In this document: positions 13,137 through 55,397 of the stretch, one piece after another
Layout: every line of letters starts with the position of its first letter
Numbering within the stretch: position 1 is the first letter of the stretch
Source of the DNA: a virus
IMG/VR virus record: IMGVR_UViG_3300045988_159790
Strand: one strand, 5' to 3'
Length of the DNA stretch: 64,000 bases
Notes under the pieces: model-generated
What the model was told of the DNA's origin: nothing
What the model saw: only the letters and a program-made list of their open reading frames with translations
The model's database searches: none
Position numbers and translations under genes: made by a program

Positions 13137-14741
13137 GTGACTGAAAAAACCAAGGAGATTAAAGAAAAAGGTTTCGATATGTTTAATAAAGAACCTTCAG
13201 CTCCAACAACCTTTTACAAAGATATGTTTTCTGAAGATAAATCAGATATCTATTTTAGTAGTGTAAAAGTAGGTCAAAAGAAACTGGATGATGCAACTTT
13301 AACGCTTAGTGATTTAAAGAAAGCAAATCCAAGATTAGCTGATAAAAATACTATTTTACAAGCAATAGATAGATATGATTTAAAACAAATGAGAGAAATT
13401 TCTGATTTCTTTTATCGGACAAGCGGAATTTATTCCAGAATATTACGATATATGGCATTTATGTATAGATATGATTATTTTATCACGCCTTATGTTAATG
13501 ACTCAAATATGAATAAAGAGAAACTTTTAAAAGGTTTTTATAATTCAATGTCAACTTTAGATAATTTTAAAGTTAAGAAAACATTAGGTGAAATAGCATT
13601 AAAAGTATTAAGGCATGGATGTTATTATGGATATAAAGTTGAACAAAACGGCGGAGCGGTATTACAAGAATTACCGCCAAATTATTGTAGAAGTAGATTC
13701 TCAGCTAATGGCAAACCCGCAGTTGAATTTAATATGAAATTTTTTGATGATAATTTTAGAGATATCCAGCAAAGATTACAGGTATTAAACATATTTCCTA
13801 AAGAGTTTTCTAAAGGATATGTAAAATATAAAAAAGGTTTACTGCCACCTCAATTTTCGGGTGACACAAATGGTTGGTATTTATTAGACCCAAAGCAAAC
13901 AGTTAGATTTACTGCAAATGGAGAAGAATATCCTGCTTTTATTTCTGTAATTCCTCTAATACTAGACTTAGATGAAGCGCAAGGTCTTGATAGAAAGAAA
14001 ACTTTACAAAGATTATTAAAACTTGTTGTTCAAAAAATGCCTTTAGATAAGAATGGGGAAATGATTTTTGACATTGATGAAATGAGAGCCTTTCATAATA
14101 ATGCGGTTACGATGTTAAAGAACGCTTTAGGATTAGAAGTTTTAACAACACTCGCGGATGTTAGTGTAGAAGATATGACTGATAGTAATGCTTCTGCGCA
14201 AACAGATGATTTACAAAGAGTTGAGCGTCAATTATATAATGAAGCAGGTGTGTCTCAAATGCAGTTTAATACAGATGGTAATATTGCATTAGAGAAATCT
14301 ATTTTAAATGATGAAGCTACAATGTATAATATGCTTTTACAATTTGAAGATTTTTTAAATGAGCTGTTAGAGCCATATAATAAAAGCCCTAAGAAAGTTC
14401 AGTATAAAGTACAGTTATTAACTACAACTATTTATAATTATAAAGAACTTTCAAAAGCGTATAAAGAGCAAACTCAATTAGGTTATTCTAAGATGTTGCC
14501 GCAGATAGCTTTAGGTCAAACTCAAAGTAGTATTTTAGCTACTGCTTATTTTGAGAATGAAGTTCTTGATTTAGTTAGCTTATTCATCCCACCTATGCAA
14601 AGTAGCGTAATGAACGCAGATATGTTAGATAGAACATCTAAGAAAATTGCAAATGGAGATGAAAAAGAAGCGGGAAGACCTGAAAAAGAAGATGACCAAA
14701 AATCAACTAAAACTTTACAGAATAAAGAAAGTATGAGCTAG
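13137..14741 (+). CDS. portal protein (by size and position)
   Basis: 534 aa, follows terminase; GTG start with GGGGG RBS; consensus promoter 13082-13110 upstream. Confidence 0.55.
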   Translation: MTEKTKEIKEKGFDMFNKEPSAPTTFYKDMFSEDKSDIYFSSVKVGQKKLDDATLTLSDLKKANPRLADKNTILQAIDRYDLKQMREISDFFYRTSGIYSRILRYMAFMYRYDYFITPYVNDSNMNKEKLLKGFYNSMSTLDNFKVKKTLGEIALKVLRHGCYYGYKVEQNGGAVLQELPPNYCRSRFSANGKPAVEFNMKFFDDNFRDIQQRLQVLNIFPKEFSKGYVKYKKGLLPPQFSGDTNGWYLLDPKQTVRFTANGEEYPAFISVIPLILDLDEAQGLDRKKTLQRLLKLVVQKMPLDKNGEMIFDIDEMRAFHNNAVTMLKNALGLEVLTTLADVSVEDMTDSNASAQTDDLQRVERQLYNEAGVSQMQFNTDGNIALEKSILNDEATMYNMLLQFEDFLNELLEPYNKSPKKVQYKVQLLTTTIYNYKELSKAYKEQTQLGYSKMLPQIALGQTQSSILATAYFENEVLDLVSLFIPPMQSSVMNADMLDRTSKKIANGDEKEAGRPEKEDDQKSTKTLQNKESMS

Positions 14742-25020: not shown

Positions 25021-28000
25021 ATGGCAGGAAGAAAAAGAATTGATATTGATATAGGGTTCAATACCGATACCTCAAGAGCAAAAGCTCAAATTCAAGATTT
25101 ACAAAAACAGATAGTTAATTTATCGGTTGCCGCAAAGCAGAATACAGCAACTAATACCTTATCTTCTGATATTTCCAAAGCTGTAATAGAAGCTAGTAAA
25201 TTAAATGGTATATTATCACAATCAATGACTTTTAAGGGAGATAACCTTGATTTATCTAAATTTGTTACAAACTTAAATAAGTCTGGTACTACTATTTCTC
25301 AAGTTCGTAAGAATTTAGAATCATTAGGTCCTCAAGGTCAAAAAGCATTTACATCTTTAGCGCAATCTATTATGTCTGCGGAAGTTCCTTTAAGACAGTC
25401 TGAAGGACTTTTAAAGAGTTTTTCTACTACTCTTACAAATAGTGCGAAATGGACTGTAGCTTCAGGTGCCGTTCATCAAGTACAAACAGAATTTAGTAAA
25501 GCTTTTGAATATAGTAGAAAGCTTGATAAATCATTAAATGAAATTAGAATAGTATCTGGAGAAAGTTCAGATAATATGGCTAAATTTGCTAAACAAGCAA
25601 ATGAATCTGCCAAAGCTTTAAATACAACAACAACTGCATATACAAATGCGGCATTAATCTTCTATCAGCAAGGTCTGGATACTGCCGCAGTTAAGGAACG
25701 TACTGATGCAGTTACAAAGATGGCAAGTGTTACAGGAGAGACTGCGGCGGATGTTTCTTCTTATATGACAGCTATTTGGAATAACTTTAATGATGGTTCA
25801 AAAAGCGTAGAATACTTTGCAGATGTTCTTACTGCATTAGGTGCGGCAACTGCATCTAGTACAGATGAAATCGCAGCAGGTCTTGAGAAGTTTGCTTCTA
25901 TTGGTAATACTGTAGGTTTATCATACGAATATGCTACTTCTGCTCTTGCAACTGTTGTTGCAGAAACTCGTCAGTCCGCAGATACTGTAGGTACTGCATT
26001 TAAGACATTATTCGCACGTATCCAGGACTTAGAGTTAGGTAATACTTTAGATGATGGAACAACATTAGGTCAGTATTCTAAGGCTCTTGAATCTATTGGT
26101 GTTAATATTAAAGATTCAAAAGGCGAAGTTCGTGATATGGATGATATCTTAGACGATATGGGTTCTAAATGGAAAACCATTTCTAAGGATACACAGATTG
26201 CAGTTGCGCAAGCAGTTGCAGGTACTCGTCAGTATAGCCAATTAATTGCCTTAATGGATAAATGGGATGTCTTCCAAGAGAACTTAAATATAGCTAAGGG
26301 TGCAGAAGGTTCTTTACAACAGCAAGCTGATATTTATGCAGAATCATGGGATGCCGCATCTAAGAAAATAAAAACTTCATTAGAAGAAATTTATTCAAAT
26401 CTTATTGATAGTAAAACTATGGTTGATTTAATGAAATTCCTTAGTAAAGCTATTGAAGGATTTGGTCATTTTGTTGATTCTGTTGGTGGAGTTAGAACTG
26501 CTTTTATTTTATTAGCAAATACTATAATTTCTAATCAAGGTCCTCAAATAAGCAAATATGTTGATAAAGTTGTTGATAACTTTAAAATTAAATTTGGTAT
26601 TATGGGCAAAGAAATTGAGGCAACCCGAGAGAAGGCTCAAAAAGAATATAAAGCTATGATTGCGGGAATGGATATAAGAACGCCAGAAGACCGTGCGCAA
26701 GTAGCTAATATGAAAGCAAATTATGATATTGAAAATGCTATTTTTGAGAAGAAAAAAGAGTTAGCTAAAATAAATGCAAATTTAACTGAATCTCAAATAG
26801 AACAAATAGCTAATGAAAAAGCTCAATTAAAACAATTAACAGAAGAAGCTGAAGTTACAGCTCAGATTTATGATACTAAAAATAAAGCTAGACACGCTGC
26901 ATCTGACGATATTTCATCTATTGGTCAGAGATTTAAAAGCACTAATTTATCTTTAGACAACGTAGACAGTAAAAAAATTCGTGAAAAAATTACTTCAGAA
27001 GTAAACAAAGCTTATTATGCAAAAAATTTACCTGAAAATACTTTACAAGAGCTTTATGCAAAGAAAGTATTATTAGGTGAAGCAGATGAATTACCTAGTG
27101 AATATTATCTTAGTCAAAACTATAAAGGTATAGAAAAAACCAGAGCAAGAAATAGCCGCTATTGGGATATGATACATCAAGTTGACCCTGCAGATGAGAA
27201 TGGTAATTATAGATTCTCAGAAAAAGAACGAAGACCAACAAATAGTGCGAATATTAATAAAACAGTATATAAATCATACCTTGAAAAATATAGAGATACT
27301 AAAAAGTTAGCTGAAGGCATGGTTAATCCTAATTTTGATGAAGAAGCACAGGAAGCTCTTCAGAATCAATTTTTTGAAGACTATAATGCTGCAGAATTAG
27401 CATATGCTGGAAATGAAACTAATATTTCTACTAGTAATAAAGTTTTAAATTTATTTGATATGAATAAAGTTAAATCAGGTAAATTTTCTTTAAAAGATAT
27501 GCAAGAAACATTATCTACTCTTTATAATTCTTCAAATGAAAATAAGCGAATGATTGATGACCTTATGAAATTAAATGAATATAAAAAAGAAGGTAATATT
27601 AAAAAGCTTATTACTGGTCAGAATGTAGCAGGTGCAGATAAAACAGACTATGCTCATATGCTACAGATGATTGAAAACAATAGAACGAGTTATCTTACAA
27701 ATCGAGATACTCTTAGTGGCAATCTCAGAGGTGTTTTACAAAATTACGGTTTTGAAGCTACAGATGTTACAAAGATATCTGACGCACTTGATGAACAACA
27801 TAAAGCGATAAAGGCTTCAGATAAGTCTTTAGCAGATTATGTAAAATCTTTATTAGATGTTCAAAATCATTCTAAATCAGTAGTTGATTCTATTAATGAG
27901 ATGGGATTTTCTGTAGGTAGTATTGGCGAGAATTTTGCTAATGGCGCGAGTGCTATGAGTAGTTTTGCGATGACTGCTAATAGTGCTTATTCTGTTTTTG

Positions 28001-31000
28001 AATCTATAGAAGAATTATTTTCTGGAGATTTAAAATTAAGTATTGGTTCTATAATTGGACTTTTTACTCAATTGGGCTTTAGTGTGTCTGGTTTTCTTCA
28101 AACAAAGAAATCATTTAATCAATTTTCAAACATGCTTTCGGGAACTATTGGTAATAGAGCTACTTTAAAAGACCAAAAAGCATTAGAAGACAGAAAATAC
28201 AATTTAGCAGAAACAAAAGATAGTATTGATGCTTCATTTAAAGAATATCTTGAAAAGAAAAGTGTATTTGGAAAAGATAAAGGTAAACAAAAGAAATTAT
28301 CAGATTTTGCAAGTTTGATAGGTGAAAGTCAAACAATAGACTTGCCAGATAATTTATCTAAAATGAGTGCTGATGAAAGAAAAGATTGGCTTTCTAAAGT
28401 AAGTGGAGCAAAAATTGATTCGCAATATAGAACTAGAGATTCTAGACTTACAGGAATTACAAAGGGTCTTATTACAAATGATAATGAATGGGCAAACTTT
28501 ACTGAAAGTTTAAAGCAGAGAAAAGCTGCCGCACAAGAAGAGCAAGATATTGTAGCAACAACTCAAGCGGTTGAAGGTCGTGGAATTCAAATCGCAAGTA
28601 AAGTTTCAAAGGCAATGGGCGCAATTGGTATTGCTGTTCAGGTTGCAACAGCAGCGTATGCCGCGTATAACCTTATTCATAAAGCGGTTGTAGCTAATTT
28701 ACAAAAAGAGGCAGAAGAAAGTCTTAGAGTAGCACAAAATACAACAGAAAGAACAAAGCAGTATAAAGAAGAATCAGATAAAGTTAGTGAATTAAAGAAA
28801 GCTTATGATGAATTATATAATAAGTATAATGATGGAGAATTATCAGCTTCCGCATTAAAGAAACAAAGCTATGACCTTTGTATGCAATATGGTGAAGAAG
28901 AGCTTGCAGTAAAAGCATTAAGTGGAGAATATAAGAGTCTCGAAGAAGCTATGAAGTCTATTGAGAGTAAAAAAACAGAGAAAACACTTAATTCTGCAAA
29001 GCAAGAACAGAAAAACTATGAAATAGCTCTTAAAGACCAATTAAGTGCAAGTGCAGAAGAAGATTCAGGTAGAAGAGATTTTGTTAATGGAACTGAGACT
29101 ATTGACTTAAAAGGTATGGTTGCAAGAAATTCTAAAGAAAAGAATTTAGCTAGTCAACTTCAAGAATTAGGAGTTCAATTCCTTACAAATGATAAAATTA
29201 GTCTCCAAAGTTTAGCTACTGCAATTAAGACAGATGCGGATGCAGTTCAATCTGTATTAAATGATTCTGATACTTCTGCAGCAAAACAATTAAGACAGTA
29301 TTTATCAAGTGCAAAAGACCAAATTGATGGTTTAACAGAATCTATAGATACTGCGCATGAAGCCCAAAAGACTATGATTGTAGATGCCCAAAACTTTGAT
29401 GCGATTAATTCTATTGAAGACTATACTACAACATGGAGAAATATGGTCCATGAAGCGTTAAGTAAAGGTGTTTATGATTCTATTGAGGATGCTTCAAAAT
29501 GGGCAAATTCGTATATGTCTGCTATTGATAGTATAAAAGAATATGCTCAAACTGCAACAGTTGCTGACACTATTATGTCTAATACTTCTACAGATGTATT
29601 TAAAGATATTCAAAAACAGAAAGATGAAATTGATAAGAAGACTACTGAAGATTATCTTAATGCTGTTGGGGATAATGCTAAATATATCTATCAAGATAAA
29701 GGTTTATTTGGTACGGGTCTTTTTGCAAAAGGTGAAATAACTGAAGAAGAATACAATAGCCATAATAAGTCTTATAATCAAGTTGGCGCAGGCGGTAATT
29801 ATATATATACTAAAGAAGTTGACCAAAATGCTGTTCAAGAATGGAAAGATAGTCAAAAAATAGCTTCTGAATTAAATAGTTTACAATATTATGAATCTAT
29901 GACGAAAGCTTTAGATAACTATTCTACTTATGAACAAAGTTTCTTTAGTGATAATTTTTCTCAGTTGCTTAGTGAAGCAATGGAGAAGAATAGTAATAAT
30001 ACAGAAAAAGCTTTATCTTCATTGGCAGAAAAGCTTCCTAATGTATTTAAAGGAAGTGCAGAAAAAGGCGAAGCTGATTATGCACAAACTTTAGTTGATG
30101 GTTTAATTACTGATAAAACAGAACTAACAGATAAGCAAAAGAAACAAATTCTTGATACTCTTGATTTTTCCGGTGTTACATCTGAAGGTGTATCAGTTGA
30201 TGAAAAAACTTTAAATAATATGGATTGGTCATCTCAAGCTACTCTTATGGCATCTTTCTATGGCGAGAAATTAAAGTTAATTGAAGAGACTGGTGATGCG
30301 GCAAGAGAAGAAGCTCAATTAGAAGCTGATACATATAAAGAAAAATATAAAGAGCAAATAGATGACTATAAAGAAGCTCAAAAAGAATTAGAATTATTAT
30401 CAGAAGATTCAGATGCTAATTTCACTCAAGATGATATTGGTAAATTAGTTGATAAGTTTAATGGCAATGATTTAAGTGGTCTTAATAGTGACACTATTAG
30501 AGATTTAAAAGATGCTATGAAAAATCAAGGCTATGGCAGTGATGATAGTGATGTTGTAAATTTCTTTAAAAAGCTTAGTAATAAAAAATATTCAGACCAG
30601 TTAGAGAAACTTGATGATTTAGTTAAAGACCTTACCGTTGATTCAGAAGATTGGAACAAGGTTGTTAAAGCTGGCGAAAAAGCGCAAGAAGCTAATAGTA
30701 GTGTTATTGATGAAATTCAAACTGGGTATAAGACTCTAACATCTGCTATGAAGGATTATAATGCTAATGGTTACTTTACTATGGATAATCTTCAAGCTAT
30801 CCTTGAACTTGAACCTAAATATCTTTCAGCATTAGAGTGGGATGGAAGTCAGTTTAAGTTAAATACTGCTGACTTAAAAGAGATGACTAAGGCTAAACTT
30901 GCGGATATGGCAGTAAGTCAAGCAAGAATTACTGTAGCTAAAGTTGAATCTATTTTATCAAGCGATAATGTAGTTAATGCAGCTATGGAATTAGAGATGA

Positions 31001-34000
31001 CTCAAAAGTTGACTACATCGACAATGAGTTATGCAGAGACTTTAATTGCAGAAGCTAGAGGTTTAGCTGCTGCAAACACAGAGCTTCAGAACAATGCTGC
31101 AGCAATGCAACAAGTTACAATGTATATTGATGCGCAGGAAAATGCGATTGCCGCGATAGGCAATGTTTATGATAATATTGATGCGCATTTTGATAAGATT
31201 ATGGGTAGTAGTTCTGCTGCTTCATCTTCAAAGAAGAAATACTTTGAAGATGAGTTCGATAGATATTGGGAATTTAAGAAGGCTATTGATGAAGTTGCTC
31301 ATGCAATGGAGCGCCTTGAAGATGAACAAGATAATCTGTACGGACAAGAATTAATTGATAATCTTAATCAAGTAAATGATTTATTAGTAACTCAAAAAGC
31401 TAATTATGAAGCTTTATATGAAGCACAAAAGGTTGAAGCAGAAGAATTAAGAAGCTCATTAAGTGCTTATGGTGCATTATTTGATGAGGAAGGTCGTCTT
31501 ACAAACTATGCAGATATTACGACATCTATGTTTGCACAGTATGGTAATGTTGATGATTCAGAAACATATGAAGAATTTAAGAAATATCTTGAAAGATATG
31601 ATACTCTTTATTATTCTGAAATGGTCGATACTACAGATAAGATTGTAGAAGAATCTAAGAAGATACTTGAAAATAATCTTAAGATTTGGGAAACAGATAT
31701 CCAAATTAACTTAGATTTAAAACAAGCTGAAAGAGACTGGAATGATTTCTTAAAAGAGATTAACAGAAACTTTAAATCAACATTTAGTGATGCAGGACAA
31801 GAGATTGAATATGCTTTAAAGAAAGCTCAAACATTTAACTTAAATGATGGAACTCTTGCAAGTGATATTCAGAAAGTTGAGAATATCAACTATGAAATAG
31901 ACCAATTGAAGAATGGCGGAACAAGTGATTTATTTAGTTCTTTATCAGAAGCAGAAAATGCTTTAAAAGAAGCTAACAAGACACTTCAAGATGATGCTGA
32001 GGAGCTATTCTCAACATATGAAGAAGGTTGGAACGCTTATTTAGAATATATTGATGATGTAGGAACGCATCTTGATAATATTAATAAGAAATATGAAGAA
32101 TTAAATGAAGAGCTTGAACATCAAGCTAATTTAATTAGTCTTTTATATGGAGATACAGCTTATGATAAACTTGCTAAGTTATATGATACTCAACAGAAAA
32201 ATAATTTAGCTCAATTAAAATCTTTAAGACAACAGACAGATTTTTATCAGGCACAATATGAGAAAGCTGTTCAATTAGATGGTGAAGATAGTAAATCCGC
32301 AGAAAAATGGCTTGAAAAGAAAAAACAAGCTATGCAAGACCTTCGTTCAGAAGAAGAGACTTACATTAAGACTATTCAAAGTAAATATAATAATACTATT
32401 GATAGTATCATTAAAAAAGCTAGAATGGCTACTAATGGCGGAGTTGACACTGATTGGGCTAGAACCATGTATGATTTAACAAAGACTAAATCAGAAGGTA
32501 ATTATGATGATGTTGAAAGAGTATATCAATTAACTTCATTACAATCTAAATGGAATAAATTAATTGCAGATACTACAGGAACTAAAAATCAAGAAAAGTT
32601 AAAGAAGATTATGGATGAGCAATTAGCTAATCTTGAAAAGAAAGCTACTTTAACAGAGTATGACATTGGTCTCGCGGAAAAAGCACTTGCGGTAGAACAA
32701 GCTAGAATAGCGCTTGAGCAAGCTCAGAATTCAAAAGATAGTATGAAGCTTACTAGAAATGCAGAAGGTAATTGGTCTTATCAATATGTAGCAGATGAAG
32801 ATAATGTTGCGGAAAAGCAACAAGATTTATTAGATGCTATTAATGATAAATATGAATATGTAAAATCTGCAAATCAACAAGCTTTAGATGATTTACTTCA
32901 ATATGAAGAAGATTTCTGGAATAAATACGCGGAGATTATGAAAGATGTTTCCTTATCTGATGAAGAAAGACAAAGTAGAATAGCTCAACTTTATGATATG
33001 TATTATGGAAAAGAAGGTATTCTTACTCAAGCTTATCAAGACTCTGCACAAACACAACAAGATTTAAACCTTGTTACAGCAGAACAATTATGGGCTATTT
33101 ACGAATCAGACCAAGAGAAGTATGCTACTATGACTGCTGCAGAACAAGAGTTAATAGATGGTTTAAAGAACGGAACTATTAAATCTTATGAAGATATTCA
33201 AGAAGCTGGTCAAAGAGTTAATGATGAAAGTCTTGACTATTGGAATACAACTGCACAAGCAATGGCAGATGCATGGAATGCAGATGATGGAATGAGTATT
33301 AAATCTCAGGTTAATGAAGCTTTAAAGGATTGCTCATCTGCATTAGGAGATTATAATGCAGATGTTGATGCAGGATGCGCAGCCGCAGGTGAAGATTTTA
33401 CAGATGTGGGTAGTGCGATAGATGATGTATCTAGTGCTATTGATGATTTAGATGGAACAACTGAAGATTATATTGACAATGCAGAAAAATTAATTGATGA
33501 TTACATAAATAGTTTAAAAGAATTAGAATCTCAATGGAAAGAAGTTAAGGCTATTGTTGAACAAAATATTGAAACTATGAAGAAATATGAGTTAGCAGCA
33601 AAGAGTGCTTCTACTGTCAAAACTCCAGCTGCTGCAGCTCCATCAAGCGGAGGTAGTGTAGGTGGAAATTCTACTGATATTGCAGATAATAACCCTCCGG
33701 AAGAAACAGTTCATTACTATTCAGTAGATAGCGCACCAGATGGTGATGGTTTAGTAGTAACAGTATATGAAAGAACGGGAAATAGTGAAAAAGCGATAGG
33801 ACGAGATGGAGAAGAGCCAAAAGATTACAGAGACCATAGAATTAGTTCTGTTTGGGAAGCTAGAGATTATATAAATCAAGTTTTATCTGATAATGGATAT
33901 GATGAAGAGTTAGACCCTAATGTAAATGTTCAAACAAGCGGTTACAAATATTATTTAGATAATGCAAGAGTAAATACATATTCTTTCGATACTGGCGGAT

Positions 34001-34353
34001 ACACTGGAGAATGGGATAATTCAGGAAGACTTGCAGTATTGCATCAAAAAGAGCTAGTTTTAAATAAAGATGATACAGAAAACATTCTTAATGCAGTTGA
34101 ATTTGTTCGTGGAATTGCAAGCTCTATAGGAGCTTCATTATTATCTCAACTTGCGGGAATGACAAATGCTACTTCTAGTATTCATCCAGTTAGTGCAGAT
34201 TACTTATCTTCTAATGTTAGTAATGCTTCTAATAATAATGTCTATAATGTTACTGCAGAGTTCCCTAATGCAGAGAGTGTTCAAGATATTAGAGAAGCTT
34301 TATTAAGTTTACCTAATTTAGTTAGTCAAAAAGTTAATGAAAAAAATATTTAA
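25021..34353 (+). CDS. tail tape measure protein (3110 aa)
   Basis: Very long A/S/Q/K/E-rich, largely helical ORF in canonical position after major tail/chaperones; RBS AAGGAG. Confidence 0.85.
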   Translation: MAGRKRIDIDIGFNTDTSRAKAQIQDLQKQIVNLSVAAKQNTATNTLSSDISKAVIEASKLNGILSQSMTFKGDNLDLSKFVTNLNKSGTTISQVRKNLESLGPQGQKAFTSLAQSIMSAEVPLRQSEGLLKSFSTTLTNSAKWTVASGAVHQVQTEFSKAFEYSRKLDKSLNEIRIVSGESSDNMAKFAKQANESAKALNTTTTAYTNAALIFYQQGLDTAAVKERTDAVTKMASVTGETAADVSSYMTAIWNNFNDGSKSVEYFADVLTALGAATASSTDEIAAGLEKFASIGNTVGLSYEYATSALATVVAETRQSADTVGTAFKTLFARIQDLELGNTLDDGTTLGQYSKALESIGVNIKDSKGEVRDMDDILDDMGSKWKTISKDTQIAVAQAVAGTRQYSQLIALMDKWDVFQENLNIAKGAEGSLQQQADIYAESWDAASKKIKTSLEEIYSNLIDSKTMVDLMKFLSKAIEGFGHFVDSVGGVRTAFILLANTIISNQGPQISKYVDKVVDNFKIKFGIMGKEIEATREKAQKEYKAMIAGMDIRTPEDRAQVANMKANYDIENAIFEKKKELAKINANLTESQIEQIANEKAQLKQLTEEAEVTAQIYDTKNKARHAASDDISSIGQRFKSTNLSLDNVDSKKIREKITSEVNKAYYAKNLPENTLQELYAKKVLLGEADELPSEYYLSQNYKGIEKTRARNSRYWDMIHQVDPADENGNYRFSEKERRPTNSANINKTVYKSYLEKYRDTKKLAEGMVNPNFDEEAQEALQNQFFEDYNAAELAYAGNETNISTSNKVLNLFDMNKVKSGKFSLKDMQETLSTLYNSSNENKRMIDDLMKLNEYKKEGNIKKLITGQNVAGADKTDYAHMLQMIENNRTSYLTNRDTLSGNLRGVLQNYGFEATDVTKISDALDEQHKAIKASDKSLADYVKSLLDVQNHSKSVVDSINEMGFSVGSIGENFANGASAMSSFAMTANSAYSVFESIEELFSGDLKLSIGSIIGLFTQLGFSVSGFLQTKKSFNQFSNMLSGTIGNRATLKDQKALEDRKYNLAETKDSIDASFKEYLEKKSVFGKDKGKQKKLSDFASLIGESQTIDLPDNLSKMSADERKDWLSKVSGAKIDSQYRTRDSRLTGITKGLITNDNEWANFTESLKQRKAAAQEEQDIVATTQAVEGRGIQIASKVSKAMGAIGIAVQVATAAYAAYNLIHKAVVANLQKEAEESLRVAQNTTERTKQYKEESDKVSELKKAYDELYNKYNDGELSASALKKQSYDLCMQYGEEELAVKALSGEYKSLEEAMKSIESKKTEKTLNSAKQEQKNYEIALKDQLSASAEEDSGRRDFVNGTETIDLKGMVARNSKEKNLASQLQELGVQFLTNDKISLQSLATAIKTDADAVQSVLNDSDTSAAKQLRQYLSSAKDQIDGLTESIDTAHEAQKTMIVDAQNFDAINSIEDYTTTWRNMVHEALSKGVYDSIEDASKWANSYMSAIDSIKEYAQTATVADTIMSNTSTDVFKDIQKQKDEIDKKTTEDYLNAVGDNAKYIYQDKGLFGTGLFAKGEITEEEYNSHNKSYNQVGAGGNYIYTKEVDQNAVQEWKDSQKIASELNSLQYYESMTKALDNYSTYEQSFFSDNFSQLLSEAMEKNSNNTEKALSSLAEKLPNVFKGSAEKGEADYAQTLVDGLITDKTELTDKQKKQILDTLDFSGVTSEGVSVDEKTLNNMDWSSQATLMASFYGEKLKLIEETGDAAREEAQLEADTYKEKYKEQIDDYKEAQKELELLSEDSDANFTQDDIGKLVDKFNGNDLSGLNSDTIRDLKDAMKNQGYGSDDSDVVNFFKKLSNKKYSDQLEKLDDLVKDLTVDSEDWNKVVKAGEKAQEANSSVIDEIQTGYKTLTSAMKDYNANGYFTMDNLQAILELEPKYLSALEWDGSQFKLNTADLKEMTKAKLADMAVSQARITVAKVESILSSDNVVNAAMELEMTQKLTTSTMSYAETLIAEARGLAAANTELQNNAAAMQQVTMYIDAQENAIAAIGNVYDNIDAHFDKIMGSSSAASSSKKKYFEDEFDRYWEFKKAIDEVAHAMERLEDEQDNLYGQELIDNLNQVNDLLVTQKANYEALYEAQKVEAEELRSSLSAYGALFDEEGRLTNYADITTSMFAQYGNVDDSETYEEFKKYLERYDTLYYSEMVDTTDKIVEESKKILENNLKIWETDIQINLDLKQAERDWNDFLKEINRNFKSTFSDAGQEIEYALKKAQTFNLNDGTLASDIQKVENINYEIDQLKNGGTSDLFSSLSEAENALKEANKTLQDDAEELFSTYEEGWNAYLEYIDDVGTHLDNINKKYEELNEELEHQANLISLLYGDTAYDKLAKLYDTQQKNNLAQLKSLRQQTDFYQAQYEKAVQLDGEDSKSAEKWLEKKKQAMQDLRSEEETYIKTIQSKYNNTIDSIIKKARMATNGGVDTDWARTMYDLTKTKSEGNYDDVERVYQLTSLQSKWNKLIADTTGTKNQEKLKKIMDEQLANLEKKATLTEYDIGLAEKALAVEQARIALEQAQNSKDSMKLTRNAEGNWSYQYVADEDNVAEKQQDLLDAINDKYEYVKSANQQALDDLLQYEEDFWNKYAEIMKDVSLSDEERQSRIAQLYDMYYGKEGILTQAYQDSAQTQQDLNLVTAEQLWAIYESDQEKYATMTAAEQELIDGLKNGTIKSYEDIQEAGQRVNDESLDYWNTTAQAMADAWNADDGMSIKSQVNEALKDCSSALGDYNADVDAGCAAAGEDFTDVGSAIDDVSSAIDDLDGTTEDYIDNAEKLIDDYINSLKELESQWKEVKAIVEQNIETMKKYELAAKSASTVKTPAAAAPSSGGSVGGNSTDIADNNPPEETVHYYSVDSAPDGDGLVVTVYERTGNSEKAIGRDGEEPKDYRDHRISSVWEARDYINQVLSDNGYDEELDPNVNVQTSGYKYYLDNARVNTYSFDTGGYTGEWDNSGRLAVLHQKELVLNKDDTENILNAVEFVRGIASSIGASLLSQLAGMTNATSSIHPVSADYLSSNVSNASNNNVYNVTAEFPNAESVQDIREALLSLPNLVSQKVNEKNI

Positions 34354-45533: not shown

Positions 45534-45550
45534 TATTAGAAAGGAGAATA

Positions 45551-46300
45551 ATGAATTATAGTATTGGACAATATAATAATATAAATGAGTCTTTACAAAT
45601 TATGAGTCCTGTGAGCCAAAGTGGTGACCCATATGAAGTAGAAACTGTTATTGAAGATACAGGTATTGTTTTTAAAGACCCCGCAGTTAAATTAAGTGGG
45701 TCTTTATCTAGTAATAACAATTACTTTTTACATTGTAAAATAAAACGACTTAGTACAGAACAAACTTTTTATGTTAAATTAAGAACTGCAAATGATGCAG
45801 AAACAAAAGAACAGAATATCAAGATTGTAACTGTAAAACAAGGTGCGGGATGGTTTGACCTTCAAATAATTTTTAATCCAATTATAAATTCTTTTAATGA
45901 AATTTTATTTAATTTAACAAGAAGTACAATTGACTATACTAGCGCTCCAAGAAAACCAATTATTATTTTTGAAGAATTATCTGAATTACAAAATTTATTA
46001 GGCGGAAGTGCGATTCCCGCGAGTGTAGTTTTAAAATTAGGAGTTCAAGCAGGACCAGGTCTTAATATGTGTATTAACGGGGAAGGTGTTATGGTTGGTA
46101 ATAGTGGAAAATATGAAGTTAATAATGGAAAAGTTTATGTAACTTTTCTTTCTATTGTTACAACCGCAACAGATACAGATATAGAAGATAAGCAAGCTGA
46201 AAATAAAACAATCTGTTTATTTAACAGAGTGGATGGAGATAATAGAGTACGAAAAGTACGACCATTTACTATTGATTATATTTATGAGGAAGGAGAATAA
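45551..46300 (+). CDS. baseplate-associated hypothetical protein
   Basis: 249 aa ORF with AAAGGAG RBS. Confidence 0.5.
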   Translation: MNYSIGQYNNINESLQIMSPVSQSGDPYEVETVIEDTGIVFKDPAVKLSGSLSSNNNYFLHCKIKRLSTEQTFYVKLRTANDAETKEQNIKIVTVKQGAGWFDLQIIFNPIINSFNEILFNLTRSTIDYTSAPRKPIIIFEELSELQNLLGGSAIPASVVLKLGVQAGPGLNMCINGEGVMVGNSGKYEVNNGKVYVTFLSIVTTATDTDIEDKQAENKTICLFNRVDGDNRVRKVRPFTIDYIYEEGE

Positions 46301-46303
46301 TAA

Positions 46304-47983: not shown

Positions 47984-47987
47984 TATA

Positions 47988-48016
47988 GGGCGGCTTAATT
48001 GCCGCCCATTTTTTTA
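47988..48016 (+). terminator. intrinsic terminator after repeat-containing fibre gene
   Basis: GGGCGGCTTAATTGCCGCCC + ATTTTTTTATT. Confidence 0.85.
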
Positions 48017-48084
48017 TTGGTCAAAGTTTTGTAATTTATTAATTGAGATTTTTATATTATATATAAATATGGAGGTGTTGTTTA

Positions 48085-48300
48085 ATGAGTAAAAGTGATT
48101 CATCTAAGTTCATCTCACAAATAACACTTGGAGAAGATAAAGTTGTATTAAAAGACCCAAATGCTATTGAGAGAGAAAAAGATAGTGATGTTGAAGCTGT
48201 TTTAAATTTTGTAAATGGTTTTAATATTTTTGGTATGAATATAACTTTAAACAAGGAAGATAATACAATTAATTTTGGAAAACAGGAGGGTGAAGAATGA
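48085..48300 (+). CDS. small hypothetical protein, paralog of next gene
   Basis: RBS GGAGGTG; shares V.LKDPNAI...DSD...LNF.NG..FG...TINFG with 48297..48641. Confidence 0.5.
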   Translation: MSKSDSSKFISQITLGEDKVVLKDPNAIEREKDSDVEAVLNFVNGFNIFGMNITLNKEDNTINFGKQEGEE

Positions 48301-48641
48301 GTGATAAAGTAAGTACGAAGATTACTTTTGAAAATGAAGTTTATACTGTAAAAGACCCAAATGCAATAAATAAATATGAAGATAGCGCTGATTCTGATGA
48401 AGTACAAGGTCAGGGTGATGTAACTGGAATTTTAAATTTTTCAAATGGAATGAAATTATTTGGAATTACTGGTGTCGATTATGATAAAGATACTGAAACA
48501 ATTAACTTTGGGGAATATAATCCTGAAGACAATGCGCCAGTATATAAATTTAAAATAATGACAGAAGATGAGTATTCTGTTTTAACTGATAAAGACCCTT
48601 ATACTTTTTATTTATTAGAAAAAAGTAGTAAGGAGGAATAA
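48297..48641 (+). CDS. small hypothetical protein, tandem paralog; C-terminal ...DKDPYTFYLLEK motif
   Basis: RBS AGGAGGG, ATGA overlap with previous gene. Confidence 0.5.
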   Translation: MSDKVSTKITFENEVYTVKDPNAINKYEDSADSDEVQGQGDVTGILNFSNGMKLFGITGVDYDKDTETINFGEYNPEDNAPVYKFKIMTEDEYSVLTDKDPYTFYLLEKSSKEE

Positions 48642-50545
48642 TGCAAGAATATTATTTAGATGGTAATGATAATAAAACTAAAACAAGTTTTTATCAAGAT
48701 ATTAATAGTGGAATATATAATAATGTTGCTATTGGTAAAATATATTTTGATAATAGATTACTTTGGACTGCACCAAAGAAAAAATATGCTATTATTAATA
48801 TCTATAAAATGAGCAGAATTAGAACAATAGAAAATAATCAGTATAATTATTTAACTTATGATATTAATTTTACAAAAGGCGCCTTACCAGAATATTATAA
48901 TGTAGCAGAAAAAGACTCTCCTGCCGCAATTTATGCAAAAGAAGGTAAGCTTTATTCAACTGCAGATTATGCTTATTTTAGTGAATTAAGATTATTAAAT
49001 TCATATATGGGGTTCGGTGGCATACCGACAGAAGGACCTATCACAAGTCAACCAATTGATATAGGTAATTCAAATATATGGTTTAATAAAAGCAATTATC
49101 ATGGTAGTTATAATGATGATGGATTTATGACTTTTTCAGATTGTTACTGGAATTATCAAAATATTATTTTTCCCAATACTGTAACTAATCTATCCTATAC
49201 TTTTTCAAATGCTTGGGGATTAACTTGGCAGTTACCTCTTAAATCTAGTGATTTTGTATTAAATATGTATTATACTTATTTTAATGCGGGTGGCGGTATA
49301 GAAATTATAAATAATAAAGTTCAAAGAAAATCTATTAATAATTGGAGTACTTTATGTTTAATGCATGAAGGCGGAATTGGCAATAATGTATTAGATATGC
49401 AAAGTACTTTTGAAGGTAGTTCTTTAACGGTTCCACCTTGGCCTCATGCTATGGATAATTCATGGGGTTTTTTTGGTCCTAATACGGTAAGAGCTATATC
49501 TACTTATCGTAGCTGTCCTATGATTACTGCAGTAGGGATTGATTGGATGGGACATAGTGATTCTAATATTTTTCCTACTAATTTAAAATATATTAGTCAA
49601 GTTTTTTATAATTGTCAAAATTTAACAACTGCAGTAGTTGGAGTACAAGACCCAGCAAATACTTATATTTGGGAAGTATATCGTGATTGTCCAAATATAA
49701 ATTTAATACTTATGGACCCAACGGTATCTAATTTTGGAGGTAGTATTTTTGGAGGCTGGAATTGGTGCATTGGTGGGGATTGTGCTTTACTTAAAGATAA
49801 TATAGTTTTTAGAGCTGGTGGTTGTGGTGCTTTGTTAAATGCCAGTGCTTTAGGACCTAGTTTAGGTTATAATGCTAGAAGACAAGTTAATAATATGAGT
49901 TTTAGTATGTCATTAAATGTAGTAGATTTTTCTTATTGCGCAGATTCTTGTTCAAATCTAAATTATTTTGAATTTGAAGGTGAAAATGTTATTAATATAG
50001 CATGGTGTTTTAATAACTGTAATAATTTAAGAAATGTATATCAAAGACAATTAATGCAAAATTGTAATACTGTAGATATGAGCTTTACTTTTTCTTATTG
50101 CCCTAAATTAGAATATGATGAAACTTTATTAATAACTTCAAAAAACTTAATGACTATTCAATGTTGTTATTTTGGTTGTACTAATTTAAAACATATTCAT
50201 GACCGTTATATCACTAGTAATTGGACAAGAATTGGCGGAGATAAATTGGTAAATGTAAGTGCTGCATTTCAAGGATGTCCATTATTAGGTGGTAATTATT
50301 ATTTTGCTTCTGAAAATATCATATATGGAGATTTATTAGGATATCAATCTTCACCTGGAAGAGGGAATATCTTAAATATTTATATTAAATCAAATACTTT
50401 AACAAATAATAGTTTTGCAAAACATTATGCAAAAAATATTTGGTCTAATGGGAATGGTTATGATGATGCTGCAAATAATATTTTTATATATTATGCTGAA
50501 AGACAACCAGAATATAATCGTTATAAAGAAGCTAATTGGGGATAA
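48641..50545 (+). CDS. LRR_5 (BspA-type leucine-rich repeat) protein; putative receptor-binding/fibre protein
   Basis: Repeated F.nC.nL/YY.C.NL units; C-terminal WSNGNGYDDAANNIFIYY motif shared with 51679..54312. Confidence 0.55.
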   Translation: MQEYYLDGNDNKTKTSFYQDINSGIYNNVAIGKIYFDNRLLWTAPKKKYAIINIYKMSRIRTIENNQYNYLTYDINFTKGALPEYYNVAEKDSPAAIYAKEGKLYSTADYAYFSELRLLNSYMGFGGIPTEGPITSQPIDIGNSNIWFNKSNYHGSYNDDGFMTFSDCYWNYQNIIFPNTVTNLSYTFSNAWGLTWQLPLKSSDFVLNMYYTYFNAGGGIEIINNKVQRKSINNWSTLCLMHEGGIGNNVLDMQSTFEGSSLTVPPWPHAMDNSWGFFGPNTVRAISTYRSCPMITAVGIDWMGHSDSNIFPTNLKYISQVFYNCQNLTTAVVGVQDPANTYIWEVYRDCPNINLILMDPTVSNFGGSIFGGWNWCIGGDCALLKDNIVFRAGGCGALLNASALGPSLGYNARRQVNNMSFSMSLNVVDFSYCADSCSNLNYFEFEGENVINIAWCFNNCNNLRNVYQRQLMQNCNTVDMSFTFSYCPKLEYDETLLITSKNLMTIQCCYFGCTNLKHIHDRYITSNWTRIGGDKLVNVSAAFQGCPLLGGNYYFASENIIYGDLLGYQSSPGRGNILNIYIKSNTLTNNSFAKHYAKNIWSNGNGYDDAANNIFIYYAERQPEYNRYKEANWG

Positions 50546-50558
50546 AAGGAGGGCTTAA

Positions 50559-51671
50559 ATGAAAAATTGGAACTTTAATGGTTCATTAAAAGAAAATAAT
50601 AAAAGAGTTCTTACTGAAGCAGAAGGTACTGTAAACATGATTGGCGCAAGAAAAGACCCTTCTGTATCTTTTAATAATGACAATGGTAAGCTTAAAATGA
50701 CATTAAATATACCTGCGGGAGGCGGTTCTTCTGGTGGAGGCAGTGAAGAATCTGGAGTAGGTAGAACATATGTTACTGAAGATGGCGAAAGCCGTGGAGA
50801 ATATTTTAATGTTTATGAAGCACCTGAAGGAACTGATTATATTGGAAATGCATGGGGGTATGGCTCTCATGCAGAGGGCGGAGATTTATGGAGAAGTGAT
50901 GTTTCTCAAACACCTTCTTATTTAGAATATGATGCAGAAAAAATACCCTATAATATAATAGCTAGAGATACTCTTTTTGCAGCAGGGTCTTGTGTATATA
51001 TTCACACTTCTGCAGCGATAGGCTTAAATTCTCATGCCGAGGGGTATCAATGTATTGCTGCGGGAGATGCTTCTCATGCAGAAGGATATAAAACATTTGC
51101 AGATAGTAGTGCATGTGGAGCGTCGCATGCTGAAGGTTATAAAACAAAAGCAACTGGTAAATATAGTCATGCAGAAGGATATCAATCAGAAGCTAGTGGA
51201 GGAGCATCTCATGTAGAGGGTACTAATACAAATGCTACTGGATGGGGTTCTCATGCAGAAGGATGTAGTACAATAAGTGCGTGTGATTATAGTCATGCAG
51301 AAGGATACTATACAAAAGCTAATAGAAGTATGTCTCATGCTGAAGGTAACAATACTATTGCAGATGGAGTAGCTGCTCATGTAGAAGGTAATACAACTAT
51401 TGCAGGTAGCGATTATCAGCATGTACAAGGAAGGTATAACATTGCAGATTATAATAATAAATATGCTATGATTATTGGAAATGGAACTGGTAGTAGTAGT
51501 AATCGTAGAGCCAATGCCTTAACGGTAGATTGGGGAGGAAATCAAACAATTGCAGGTGAATTATATATTAAGAATTCATCCCAACCTTTGATTAGATGTT
51601 TAACTCAATCAGAATATGATAATTTAGCTACTAAAAATCCATATACATTATATTTAATAAAGGAGGAATAA
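50559..51671 (+). CDS. fibre protein with YadA-head/Hep_Hag-like beta-roll repeats (SHAEGY...A.G ~14-aa period, >=10 copies)
   Basis: Periodic SHAEGY.T.A.G repeats; C-terminal ...KNPYTLYLIKEE motif shared with 48297..48641. Confidence 0.55.
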   Translation: MKNWNFNGSLKENNKRVLTEAEGTVNMIGARKDPSVSFNNDNGKLKMTLNIPAGGGSSGGGSEESGVGRTYVTEDGESRGEYFNVYEAPEGTDYIGNAWGYGSHAEGGDLWRSDVSQTPSYLEYDAEKIPYNIIARDTLFAAGSCVYIHTSAAIGLNSHAEGYQCIAAGDASHAEGYKTFADSSACGASHAEGYKTKATGKYSHAEGYQSEASGGASHVEGTNTNATGWGSHAEGCSTISACDYSHAEGYYTKANRSMSHAEGNNTIADGVAAHVEGNTTIAGSDYQHVQGRYNIADYNNKYAMIIGNGTGSSSNRRANALTVDWGGNQTIAGELYIKNSSQPLIRCLTQSEYDNLATKNPYTLYLIKEE

Positions 51672-51678
51672 ATATTAT

Positions 51679-54312
51679 ATGTTAATTATTAATAATTTTA
51701 ATATTTGCGATGGATACTATAATAATAGTCCTCTTATAGCAGCTTATTGGGGTAGTAATTTAGTTTGGCAGAAACAACTTTCTAATCCATATGTTAGATA
51801 TTTAAACGGAATTGCTTTTAAAAATATTTTCGATACTTTAGAATATGGAGCCTATTCTGAAAATATTGCTAATATTTGTTTTTATAATGCTTCTAATGAG
51901 ATAGCTAATCATTTTACAAAAAATATCTTTTTTGCATATAATGAACCAATAAATTTTAGAACTACAACCCGAAATATCTTTATTGAAGATAATAAAGAGC
52001 CTCCTTCAGAAATTTTTCTTGTAGGAGATTGTAGCTATTTATTATCAAAATGGCAAACGCAAGCTTATTATTTTGATATTAAAAATAATAAAAATAAAAT
52101 TCCTTCTTTAAATTTTCATTATGCAGAAAATTTAGCTTTTTTTTTAGGGGACCCCTATTATTATAATTATAAAGTTTATTCAAGATATTCCAAAAATAAT
52201 ACTTTTTATTACTATCTCTTTGATGAAGTACCATTTTCTATAGATTGTGGAGATAATACTTTAAATTTATATTGTGCATATTATAATCAAAATACTATTA
52301 TAAAAGCAAAAAATCTATGTGGTGAAAATACTATTTCACTATATGGTAGTTATGAGAATTGTTCCAATTTAGTAGCTTTTCCGCAATGTAAGAATAATGT
52401 TATAGATATGTCTCGTACTTATTATAATTGCAGCAACTTGATAGGTACTCCAGTATGTGGAGATAATGTTATAAATATGGATTGTACATATTATAATTGT
52501 AGTAATATTACTGGGCAGGCAAGAATAAGCAAAAAAGCTACTATGGTATCTCAGACTTATGCTTTTTCAGGCGTAAATGAGGTAGCTCGAGAATTAAATC
52601 CTCTAATGACCCATTATAATTGGGTATATTTAGGTTGTCATAATATAAAAAATATTTATTGGGATTCAAAAATAAATTATAGAAATATTGGAGAACTAGA
52701 CCATTATGGTTTTTTTAATCATTATTTTAGTGGAGTGTATGCAGATACTGGAATTGAAGAGGCTTTTTTCCCTTTTATTAACAATAATTCATATTATGAA
52801 TTAGAGTCTGGCTACTCTATGTTTCAATCTTGTCAAAATCTTCATAAAATAAATTATTCTTTTGATAATAATATAACTAAAATAAGCGGACATGTCTTTA
52901 TAAATAATAGTTTCTCATATTGTCCTAATTTAAAAAATATTCATTTTCCAAATTATGCAACTTCAGTATCTTTTTTATCTCAAAATACAGGAGTGACTTC
53001 TATTAATTTTGATAATCTTATTAATACTTCTAGTGTTACATTAGACTTATCTTATAGTCAAAATTTAATAGAGGTTAATAGTTGTAATATAAATTATTTA
53101 CGTTCGTATAGAACTGTTTATTATTATTTTGAAAATTGCAGTAATTTAAAAATTTTTAATGTTAGTAATTTAAACCTAGGAGGCGATACCTGGGCTGGAG
53201 GTGTAAAGTTAAATAACTGTATTAATTTATATTCTGCCAAAGTAGATGAGTTTCCTCATGTAAACTTTTATAATTGTAGAAATTTAAAAAATATAGTTCT
53301 TGGAAAAAAAATAAGAGAATTATATCATACTTTTGAAAATTGTATAAGTTTATCATCTGCAATACTACCAGAAGATTTTTCTAATAGTAATAAAACAGGA
53401 CATTATCCAGATAGAGGCTTGCTCTTCTGTATGGAAGCAGCTTTTAAAAATTGTACAAATTTATTATCTGTTAATGGAGGTTTACAATTATTTAGAAGCG
53501 CTGCGGATAGAAAGGAAATTTTTTGTAATTGTTATAATCTTGTAAATGTGCCAACTTCTTTTTATAATAATGCAAAATATAATTTTATTATGTTTCAATA
53601 TGATTATAATACTAATAATTATGGTATTTGGAATAATACTTTTGCAAACTGTTATAATTTAATTACAGCTCCTTTTATTCCTGTTAGGAGTTACAATGGA
53701 TGCTATTTCTATGATACTTATTGGAATTGTACAAATTTAAGGTATTTAAAAGTAGAAGGTATTGATATGAATGATTATTATAATATAAATAAAGATATGC
53801 TTCAATATAACATATCTTTAAGTAGAACTTTTGGATATTGTAGATGTTTGAACAAAGAGGGCTTCGGACCTTTATTTAATAGAATATTAAATAATGTATC
53901 CTTTTTATTTGAAACTTTTATTGGTTGCGATAATTTATATGAAGCTTTTGAAATGCCAAATGTTAGACTAATGGAAGGTGCATATAGTAATTGTAAAAAT
54001 TTAATTACTGCATATAGTGGACCAAATACAATAGATTTATATTCAACATATTCAGATTGTCCTAATTTAAGAGGCAATCTTTATCTTCAAAATAATAATA
54101 TGAATAATATTAGTCGTTGTATTTATAATAGGAATAATCAGAATATTTTAAATATTTATGTAAATTCAAACACAAAAACCAACAATACTTTATATTATAA
54201 TAATTTATATGAAATATGGAGTAATGCAAATTATTGGAATATATGGTCTAATGGTTTAGGATATGATGATGCAAAGAACAATGTTTATGTTTATTACTTA
54301 GATAAAATGTAA
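51679..54312 (+). CDS. LRR_5 (BspA-type) repeat protein, larger paralog of 48641..50545
   Basis: Many NCxNL repeat units; shared C-terminal WSNGLGYDDAKNNVYVYY motif. Confidence 0.55.
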   Translation: MLIINNFNICDGYYNNSPLIAAYWGSNLVWQKQLSNPYVRYLNGIAFKNIFDTLEYGAYSENIANICFYNASNEIANHFTKNIFFAYNEPINFRTTTRNIFIEDNKEPPSEIFLVGDCSYLLSKWQTQAYYFDIKNNKNKIPSLNFHYAENLAFFLGDPYYYNYKVYSRYSKNNTFYYYLFDEVPFSIDCGDNTLNLYCAYYNQNTIIKAKNLCGENTISLYGSYENCSNLVAFPQCKNNVIDMSRTYYNCSNLIGTPVCGDNVINMDCTYYNCSNITGQARISKKATMVSQTYAFSGVNEVARELNPLMTHYNWVYLGCHNIKNIYWDSKINYRNIGELDHYGFFNHYFSGVYADTGIEEAFFPFINNNSYYELESGYSMFQSCQNLHKINYSFDNNITKISGHVFINNSFSYCPNLKNIHFPNYATSVSFLSQNTGVTSINFDNLINTSSVTLDLSYSQNLIEVNSCNINYLRSYRTVYYYFENCSNLKIFNVSNLNLGGDTWAGGVKLNNCINLYSAKVDEFPHVNFYNCRNLKNIVLGKKIRELYHTFENCISLSSAILPEDFSNSNKTGHYPDRGLLFCMEAAFKNCTNLLSVNGGLQLFRSAADRKEIFCNCYNLVNVPTSFYNNAKYNFIMFQYDYNTNNYGIWNNTFANCYNLITAPFIPVRSYNGCYFYDTYWNCTNLRYLKVEGIDMNDYYNINKDMLQYNISLSRTFGYCRCLNKEGFGPLFNRILNNVSFLFETFIGCDNLYEAFEMPNVRLMEGAYSNCKNLITAYSGPNTIDLYSTYSDCPNLRGNLYLQNNNMNNISRCIYNRNNQNILNIYVNSNTKTNNTLYYNNLYEIWSNANYWNIWSNGLGYDDAKNNVYVYYLDKM

Positions 54313-54328
54313 TAAAGGAGAGCAGATA

Positions 54329-55385: not shown

Positions 55386-55397
55386 TAGGAGGTTTTA

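Follow-up and report, generated by a model that had tools for sequence, protein, structure and literature searches.

A shared C-terminal tail in two phage fibre-region proteins and the genes that follow it

In phages of the T2 and S16 type, which pair a gp37 fibre with a gp38 adhesin, and in systems with Tfa-type proteins, a trimeric fibre is bound at its C-terminal tip by a separately encoded protein, the gene of which comes next; S16 carries one adhesin per fibre trimer. Here we describe a locus of possibly similar design in a virus known from IMG/VR record IMGVR_UViG_3300045988_159790. Within the window, that is, the whole stretch of 64,000 nucleotides (nt) that was analysed, a small protein that we call B and a fibre of 370 amino acids (aa) end in the same kind of C-terminal tail, and the gene directly downstream of each encodes a leucine-rich repeat (LRR) protein, of 634 and 877 aa, respectively. 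In other phages, a distinctive type of N-terminus is found almost exclusively in proteins encoded directly after such a tail. These comparisons incline us, if only modestly, to the view that the tail serves as a socket for the protein encoded by the next gene. No sequence relation to gp37-gp38 or to Tfa was detected, and the connector proposed here would differ from them in being a short split unit with three tandem strands.

A precedent for a joint between a tail and the next protein is offered, by analogy, by mycobacteriophage Mysterious. Its gp40 is a 136-aa trimeric mini-fibre of the baseplate, whose C-terminal beta-alpha-beta element engages the N-terminus of gp41, and its tandem paralogs gp35-37 form a heterotrimer (PMC13252515, preprint). 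The likeness of gp40/gp41 to B and its tandem paralog A is one of description.

Two proteins of known structure bear the tail itself, and they are the only matches to it among PDB sequences in our profile searches. The first is the upper fibre FibU of Staphylococcus phage 80alpha (gp68, PDB 6v8i), which ends ..TENEYNYIYQKDPNTLYLIKG; in 80alpha-type phages, the gene of a 131-aa protein (..KKFIYEGEEYIKVYAGNIQVW) starts 4-5 nt later. The body of FibU combines a BppU-like N-terminal domain with a collagen-like stalk, whereas that of the window fibre consists of SHAEG repeats. FibU is held in the baseplate by its N-terminal domain, while its C-terminal end, which bears the motif, is distal and disordered; laboratory growth does not require the gene (PMC7048315). 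The second match, deposited as 'tail collar fibers gp4' (9d93), is gp4 of mycobacteriophage Bxb1, as identified by tblastn; the fragment matches 941 phage records. Bxb1 gp4, a collar fibre and not a tail-tip fibre, ends ..TIWVGTEAQYTAIGTKDSNTIYLRTA, and gp5, annotated as hypothetical, starts 9 nt later (..AKAAIGSTEIQKISIGTTEIW).

The tail and its Pfam family

An earlier examination of the window from its letters alone (the sequence-only reading) had proposed that a C-terminal motif links three proteins of the fibre region. A six-frame search with a regular expression and a hidden Markov model (HMM) places the motif in two of them only, B and the 370-aa fibre, since A stops before it. For these two, the shared tail is confirmed: BLASTP aligns the tails with 10 of 24 residues identical (E=9e-5), and a tail HMM built from 23 tails, B excluded, recovers B at E=2.3e-7 and 25.9 bits, the runner-up among 815 stop-to-stop segments of the window scoring 6.3 bits. 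With an identity of just 10 in 24, recent duplication of one tail from the other, or gene conversion between them, is rejected.

The shared ending is a copy of Pfam family PF24243 (Phage_tail_C, 'Phage tail tip domain'), and is therefore already catalogued; the library entry gives a name and a description only, from which neither function nor partner can be read. The 370-aa fibre passes the curated cut-off of the family (23.7 bits) with 29.7 bits over residues 346-368, its last 23 residues being matched, as do its orthologs in L003 and L004 (27.9 and 28.1 bits), two close relatives represented by viral contigs of 147-150 kb. B reaches 12.7 bits at the equivalent place (residues 84-106), below the cut-off, and its sequence marks it as a divergent relative of the family, not a certified member. 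Elsewhere, PF24243 tails end fibre proteins of Staphylococcus, Mycobacterium, Gordonia and gut phages. Since the motif is a known Pfam family to which the window adds members, finding it is by itself a modest result.

In AlphaFold2 (AF2) models, the tail is the best-predicted part of both proteins and takes the same strand-helix-strand layout in each. The strands cover residues 83-89 and 103-108 of B, around a helix at 90-94 (predicted local distance difference test, pLDDT, up to 75), and residues 343-349 and 364-368 of the fibre, around a helix at 350-354 (pLDDT 76-87). In keeping with the family, both tails are short and C-terminal; they end 2-8 residues short of the stop codon, and the final codons of both genes are AAG GAG GAA TAA (48630-48641 and 51660-51671). 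These codons double as the Shine-Dalgarno sequence of the next gene, so that the shared K-E-E ending is partly a constraint at the nucleotide level.

Orthologs of the 370-aa fibre are 306-523 aa long in the sequenced set. Across 30 that were aligned, identity is 0.73-0.99 over residues 1-100 and 321-370, and 0.29-0.65 in the SHAEG-repeat middle; the tail is invariant or nearly so. B falls into three allelic classes with a common N-terminal half, whose tails score 25.9, 20.8 and 2.1 bits with the tail HMM. The expectation that the motif be conserved in orthologs thus holds for the fibre and for two classes of B, and fails in the third, where the tail is degenerate.

The gene after the tail

Two independent scans of viral contigs were made, the first for DNA encoding DPNT[LF]Y[LF]I and the second, as a replication, for DANT[LF]YFI. 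The scanned motif lies mostly 1-3 residues before a stop codon. The next gene starts between -4 and +26 nt from the tail gene, and its product typically opens with about three tandem 10-residue units of the form h-Y-x-G-x-x-x-h, such as MKLGTTDILDCKIGTTQIESVYLGTNLVW, MIKLGEINISSVKLGDSNISKVYQGETLIF, MPIYKGSQNQGLIYKGGSIITQVYKGSTLVY and, in staphylococcal phages, the ..KKFIYEGEEYIKVYAGNIQVW mentioned above. We refer to this opening as the plug. When 19 plugs are aligned, a 10-residue repeat is seen three times over, and G occupies columns 7, 21 and 31. No Pfam family covers the plug.

When the plug is defined strictly, as Y.G...[IVL][WYF] within the first 45 residues, it is found in 31 of 1160 unique N-termini of open reading frames (ORFs) from the pooled scans, and 30 of these 31 lie directly after a tail. 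The remaining one belongs to a tandem paralog of a plug protein. Counted per lineage, about 15 of 27 N-termini after a tail match, against 1 of 1129 elsewhere (Fisher p=4e-26); the figure of 15 in 27 includes the correction by hand of two mis-called downstream genes, the automatic pass giving 13 of 29 clusters. Where the downstream proteins are recognisable in other phages, they are modules of a binding type (BspA LRR/DUF285, ConA-like lectin). The rule also holds in annotated phages, namely in Bxb1, from gp4 to gp5, in Gordonia phage Switzerland, from gp7 to gp8 (..AFVGTGEFTPYLGSTALERIYVGSSLVW), and in LilBib, from gp35 to gp36; FibU of the 80alpha type and the 131-aa protein after it obey it too. 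LilBib gp35, a 69-aa 'minor tail protein', comprises little beyond a coiled coil and the tail, and is in this respect a parallel to B.

As a separate observation, contig L143 (IMGVR_UViG_3300045988_154999) has two tandem plug-bearing paralogs, of 269 and 272 aa, after a single fibre gene with the tail; a choice of tips for the same socket may be what they provide.

In the window, the pair formed by the 370-aa fibre and the 877-aa protein follows the rule, taken as a next gene within about 30 nt and a strict match in the first 45 residues. A gap of 7 nt separates the fibre stop codon from the ATG of the 877-aa gene, whose product opens with units at positions 5, 15 and 25, of which ..AAYWGSNLVW fits the strict pattern. 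A plug HMM made from other phages has this N-terminus as its top match in the window (E=0.014). Module borders also favour treating tail and plug as a pair: relative to L004, the tail-plus-plug stretch 51528-51774 is conserved whereas the shaft DNA before it and the tip DNA after it are unrelated, and in the 634-aa gene similarity to L005 stops at 48771, past codon 43 and the putative plug. In the pair formed by B and the 634-aa protein, the TAA of B overlaps the next ATG by 1 nt, the 634-aa LRR gene follows B in 9 of 9 loci, and the three tail classes of B go with three classes of N-terminus at the 634-aa position (MQEYYLDGN.., MLKYYLQDN.. and MLQYFLQDP..). As a candidate socket and plug, this second pair makes a weaker case than the first.

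The relatives of the window provide a plug without cargo. In seven related complete loci, the gene after the 370-aa fibre encodes either the 877-aa LRR protein, a 386-aa LRR protein with an N-terminus of the same kind, or a mini-ORF of 33 aa. The latter, MIFMGTSNIQDLKYGNINIVRVYWGNNLIWIKI, is present at L003:15811-15912 and L009:9056-9157, two loci devoid of a second LRR gene, and amounts to the N-terminal three-unit plug of the 386-aa protein and nothing more. It has its own ribosome-binding site, and its L003 and L009 copies differ at 4 nucleotides, each a synonymous change. Gene calls on 45 contigs give exactly this peptide, and nine conservative variants exist besides. Staphylococcal phages may have similar mini-ORFs, since the beginning of their 131-aa protein is matched by a PHROG family 27 residues long.

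Tail and strand also occur in one piece. We found 13 sequences in which a fibre protein begins with the tail motif and continues, 5-11 residues on, with a single I[FY]KG or LYxG strand, for example MANVNFGYGTKANYDKLTTKDANTLYFITDTRQIFKGTDEY; a PF24243 tail placed N-terminally is seen in L030 (25.3 bits). A profile made from such N-terminal units only retrieves the FibU tail from PDB at E=3.8e-5, and nothing there beyond FibU and Bxb1 gp4. Applied to the 815 segments of the window, it ranks the two tails first and second (E=8.6e-5 and 4.1e-3); they cover positions 5-31 of the profile and end with the proteins. Taken together, the contiguous units and this coverage make the tail look like the first part of a unit, the last strand of which would come from the next gene.

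A proposed socket for the next protein, and other explanations

The question arises as to how the tail and the plug could work together. The PF24243 tail, a strand-helix-strand of about 26 residues that closes the fibre protein, would be the first part of a connector unit, and the N-terminus of the next-gene product would supply the missing last strand or strands, usually as three h-Y-x-G-x-x-x-h units. Three tandem strands, matched to the three tails of a trimeric carrier, suggest that each fibre would hold a single downstream protein as its cargo. In the window, B would be a mini-fibre that carries the 634-aa LRR protein, its conserved N-terminal half presumably sitting on the tail tip. The SHAEG fibre would be attached to the virion through MKNWNFNG, its N-terminal module, and would bear the 877-aa LRR protein distally. 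Both LRR proteins would be host-binding tips. What the data show directly is the homology and position of the tails, the gene order with its statistics, the contiguous units and the plug-only mini-ORF of relatives; physical binding, its 3:1 stoichiometry and which end faces the host are inferred from sequence and gene order. The sequence-only reading had called the tail a shared docking or assembly signal; docking is indeed the role that we favour, for a motif that is not peculiar to this phage.

A more general form of the proposal appears to us conceivable, although somewhat short of probable. PF24243 may be one half of a widespread split connector, the three tails of a trimer being completed by the three strands of a single next-gene protein. 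Phages of Firmicutes, Actinobacteria and gut bacteria would in this way hang interchangeable monomeric modules (LRR, lectin-like, beta-sandwich) on their fibre tips; the 33-aa mini-ORF would act as a stand-alone cap when the cargo is absent, and the cassette studied here would encode two orthogonal pairs of socket and plug.

Several points weigh against the socket. The strict plug pattern was set after the first sample had been viewed, although the second sample replicated it, and the downstream gene has no recognisable plug in about a third to half of the tail lineages. The plug of the 634-aa protein has D, N or Q in place of G (KIYFDNRLLW), is missed by the plug HMM, and fits no more than a relaxed pattern, to which about 3% of control N-termini conform as well. 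Co-variation between the tail of B and this plug involves three classes and could be linkage alone. Some internal copies of the motif lead into Gly-rich or collagen-like linkers, which implies that the motif can exist without a strand in trans. As for structures, the AF2 monomer models have low overall confidence (pLDDT 49 for B and 56 for the 370-aa fibre), the C-terminus of FibU lacks a resolved structure (PMC7048315), and PDB contains no entry with Bxb1 gp5 or with the staphylococcal 131-aa protein.

Four other explanations are considered. The tail may be a self-sufficient end cap, or a nucleus of trimerisation, that has no partner, in which case the next-gene pattern would reflect the shared ancestry of cassettes. 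This is reminiscent of the T4 fibritin foldon and of the intramolecular chaperone domains Peptidase_S74 and Peptidase_G2, which are short or autonomous and fix the register of a trimer from its C-terminal end, and homologs of the SHAEG stalk elsewhere do end in Peptidase_S74 or Peptidase_G2 at the position that the PF24243 tail occupies here. The tail is likewise a short, autonomous strand-helix-strand at the extreme C-terminus; the internal copies that lead only into linkers, and a fibre conserved at both ends with a variable middle, also suit a cap. The window proteins themselves have no sequence match to the foldon, no Pfam match to Peptidase_S74 or Peptidase_G2, and no sign of self-cleavage. 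Association with the next gene is not a property of a foldon, and a cap leaves unexplained why 30 of 31 plug-type N-termini, in unrelated phages, come directly after a tail, why a plug-only mini-ORF is kept under purifying selection, and why contiguous tail-plus-strand units exist. We regard this scenario as unlikely.

Alternatively, the downstream protein or its plug could be a transient chaperone of tail fibre assembly, of the Tfa type of lambda and Mu. The gene order is that of fibre/Tfa pairs, translational coupling is tight, and a plug-only ORF of 33 aa would suit a minimal folding helper. However, the downstream proteins are large modules of a binding type (LRR proteins of 386-877 aa, lectin-like proteins), which is atypical of chaperones, and three tandem strands better suit a permanent structural fit. 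Neither the window proteins nor the downstream partners elsewhere match a known assembly-protein or adhesin family in Pfam or PHROG. The suggestion of the sequence-only reading that a chaperone recognises the tail is retained in part: comparative genomics points to a partner, the N-terminus of the next protein, while we doubt that this partner is a chaperone.

The last two scenarios are the least consistent with the data. One is that the tail and the start of the next gene form mainly a recombination linker at the DNA level, used in the exchange of shafts and tips and without function as protein. The fibre cassette is indeed mosaic over 9 loci, and the borders described above, those of the L004 island at 51528-51774 and the L005 breakpoint at 48771, lie between unrelated flanks. 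Yet the pattern is kept at the protein level without DNA similarity in Staphylococcus, Mycobacterium, Gordonia and gut phages, the mini-ORF substitutions are synonymous, and the tails are under purifying selection. Such a linker, which is compatible with docking and no replacement for it, is very improbable as the whole explanation. The other, which the sequence-only reading had suggested and which we consider the most doubtful of all, is that both tails dock onto one common baseplate acceptor: two otherwise unrelated proteins of one cassette do share the tail, which is invariant in orthologs of the 370-aa fibre, but the motif end of 80alpha FibU is distal and its N-terminal domain is the one in the baseplate (PMC7048315), the conserved and shared modules are N-terminal in the window proteins too, the tail is degenerate in one class of B, with upstream baseplate genes still about 95% identical, and the motif is also found in collar fibres (Bxb1 gp4) and in very different virions.

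To our knowledge, and within the limits of literature searches, the pairing of tail and next gene, the three-repeat plug, its contiguous versions and the plug-only mini-ORF are undescribed. The socket proposal gives PF24243 a testable role, that of a generic plug-and-socket joint between a fibre and a separately encoded host-binding protein. If it is correct, the mosaic borders of fibre cassettes would be explained, and many hypothetical proteins encoded after minor tail or fibre genes would be given a place in the virion, among them the 131-aa protein of 80alpha, Bxb1 gp5 and the gp36-like proteins of cluster A mycobacteriophages. It would also offer a compact and portable junction for swapping receptor-binding modules in host-range engineering.

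The fibre cassette and its surroundings

The features discussed are listed in Table 1; all ORFs were confirmed at these coordinates.

Table 1. Coordinates of the fibre-region features in the window
Feature	Position	Strand	Description
A	48085..48300	+	71 aa, small fibre-like; paralog of the N-terminal two thirds of B; no tail
B	48297..48641	+	114 aa; conserved N-terminal A/B domain (residues 1-~78), variable C-terminal half
Tail of B	48537..48623	+	residues ~81-109, ..PVYKFKIMTEDEYSVLTDKDPYTFYLLEK; PF24243-like strand-helix-strand
Shine-Dalgarno AAGGAGGAA of 634-aa gene	48630..48638	+	embedded in last codons (K-E-E) of B
634-aa protein	48641..50545	+	BspA-type LRR protein; putative cargo of B
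N-terminal 42 residues of 634-aa protein	48641..48766	+	EYYLDGNDN / SFYQDINSGI / KIYFDNRLLW; divergent putative plug
370-aa fibre	50559..51671	+	14-residue SHAEG (YadA-head-like) repeats
N-terminal module of 370-aa fibre	50559..50723	+	MKNWNFNG..IPAGGG (~55 aa); likely virion anchor
Tail of 370-aa fibre	51579..51668	+	..SQPLIRCLTQSEYDNLATKNPYTLYLIKEE; PF24243
Shine-Dalgarno AAGGAGGAA of 877-aa gene	51660..51668	+	embedded in last codons (K-E-E) of the 370-aa fibre gene
877-aa protein	51679..54312	+	LRR-type repeat protein; putative cargo of 370-aa fibre
N-terminal 30 residues of 877-aa protein	51679..51768	+	MLIINNFNICDGYYNNSPLIAAYWGSNLVW; three 10-residue units; putative plug

A and B, whose ORFs overlap by ATGA, are tandem duplicates, as the sequence-only reading had it: over the whole of A, 28 of 77 positions are identical (36%; BLASTP E=5e-13). 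Across 9 related loci, the ratio of non-synonymous to synonymous polymorphism (pN/pS) comes to 0.09 in A and, over its first 47 codons, to 0.16 in B. Both are thus real genes under purifying selection, which rules them out as pseudogene fragments. The exact sequence of A is present on more than 100 contigs, and that of B on many as well. The family is nevertheless very rare, with 7 matches in 1.84 billion representatives, none of them an annotated relative, and a tblastn search of phage genomes with B returned chance matches only. The second half of the A/B domain resembles one shaft repeat of a 1580-aa fibre (P0012). By hhalign, the domain is unrelated to the MKNWNFNG module. Within B, a recombination breakpoint lies at 48440 (about residue 48) relative to L001, L002 and L006.

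Two side observations concern these genes. In a more distant relative (L006:2-91, P0009), the ortholog of A is longer, at 99 aa, and its 28 additional residues at the C-terminus (..EEQLDFVILDHFLSPTYITKLSVRGGV) give no PF24243 tail score; A may have lost or changed a tail. An 80-aa protein from a 714-bp ENA contig (P0006) joins an unrelated N-terminal stretch of 50 residues to the last 30 residues of B, and may have arisen through recombination, a frameshifted call or misassembly.

The MKNWNFNG module of the 370-aa fibre recurs, at 63-66% identity, on a second and different fibre in L003, L004, L009 and L011. Such sharing between fibres is the classical signature of a virion anchor, which the module is likely to be. 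The SHAEG repeats of the window fibre have no match to PF05658 (YadA head repeat) at E<=0.1; the L004 ortholog reaches 22.9 bits where the cut-off is 25, and several orthologs bear a precomputed PF05658 annotation. No fold could be assigned to the AF2 model, for which Foldseek returned only insignificant beta-helix matches in PDB. A homolog search with the last 71 residues of the fibre gave one protein only, owing to the word index.

As to the LRR proteins, the 634-aa protein scores 23.6 bits with LRR_5 (PF13306), below the cut-off of 27.7, as does the 386-aa relative in L004 (26.6 bits). The 877-aa protein has no Pfam match at E<=0.1, and contains 15 repeats of the 'NCxNL' type by regular expression. 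The 634- and 877-aa proteins share an ending of their own, ..IWSNG.GYDDA.NN[IV][FY][IV]YY.. (50470-50545 and 54240-54312 in the window). In relatives, an LRR gene with the IWSNG-type ending is followed by a gene starting MKNWNFNG.., an order that hints at a further link in a chain. These C-termini scored about 0-1 bits with the tail HMM and were rejected as tails of the PF24243 type.

The source is an uncultured long-tailed phage, with a large terminase gene at 10893..12635 and a portal gene at 13137..14741. A 3110-aa tape measure protein is encoded at 25021..34353 and is followed by an 1812-aa protein without PHROG match, which together imply an unusually long non-contractile tail. Baseplate-type genes lie 3' of the tape measure gene, and the genes of A, B and the fibre form the last part of this tail module, downstream of both; an anaerobic ribonucleotide reductase is encoded on the opposite strand. 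A megablast search of GenBank phages with 43000-56000 gave no match at the DNA level. From the middle of B to the start of a conserved 144-aa gene at 54329 (48440-54326), the window is a mosaic cassette relative to L001, L003, L004, L009 and L011, and its alternative contents in relatives include 386- or 877-aa LRR proteins, the second MKNWNFNG fibre, an F5/8-type-C protein and proteins of 441-483 aa.

Further downstream, the gene of a Gly/Cys-rich 260-aa protein (55662-56444 in the window) is called in L007 (12988-14309) as a truncated ORF of 140 aa. It is followed there by a 243-aa ORF absent from the window, which starts MNNIFYVYEWYN..VFYVGKG, resembles a GIY-YIG endonuclease by eye only, and may be a mobile insertion.

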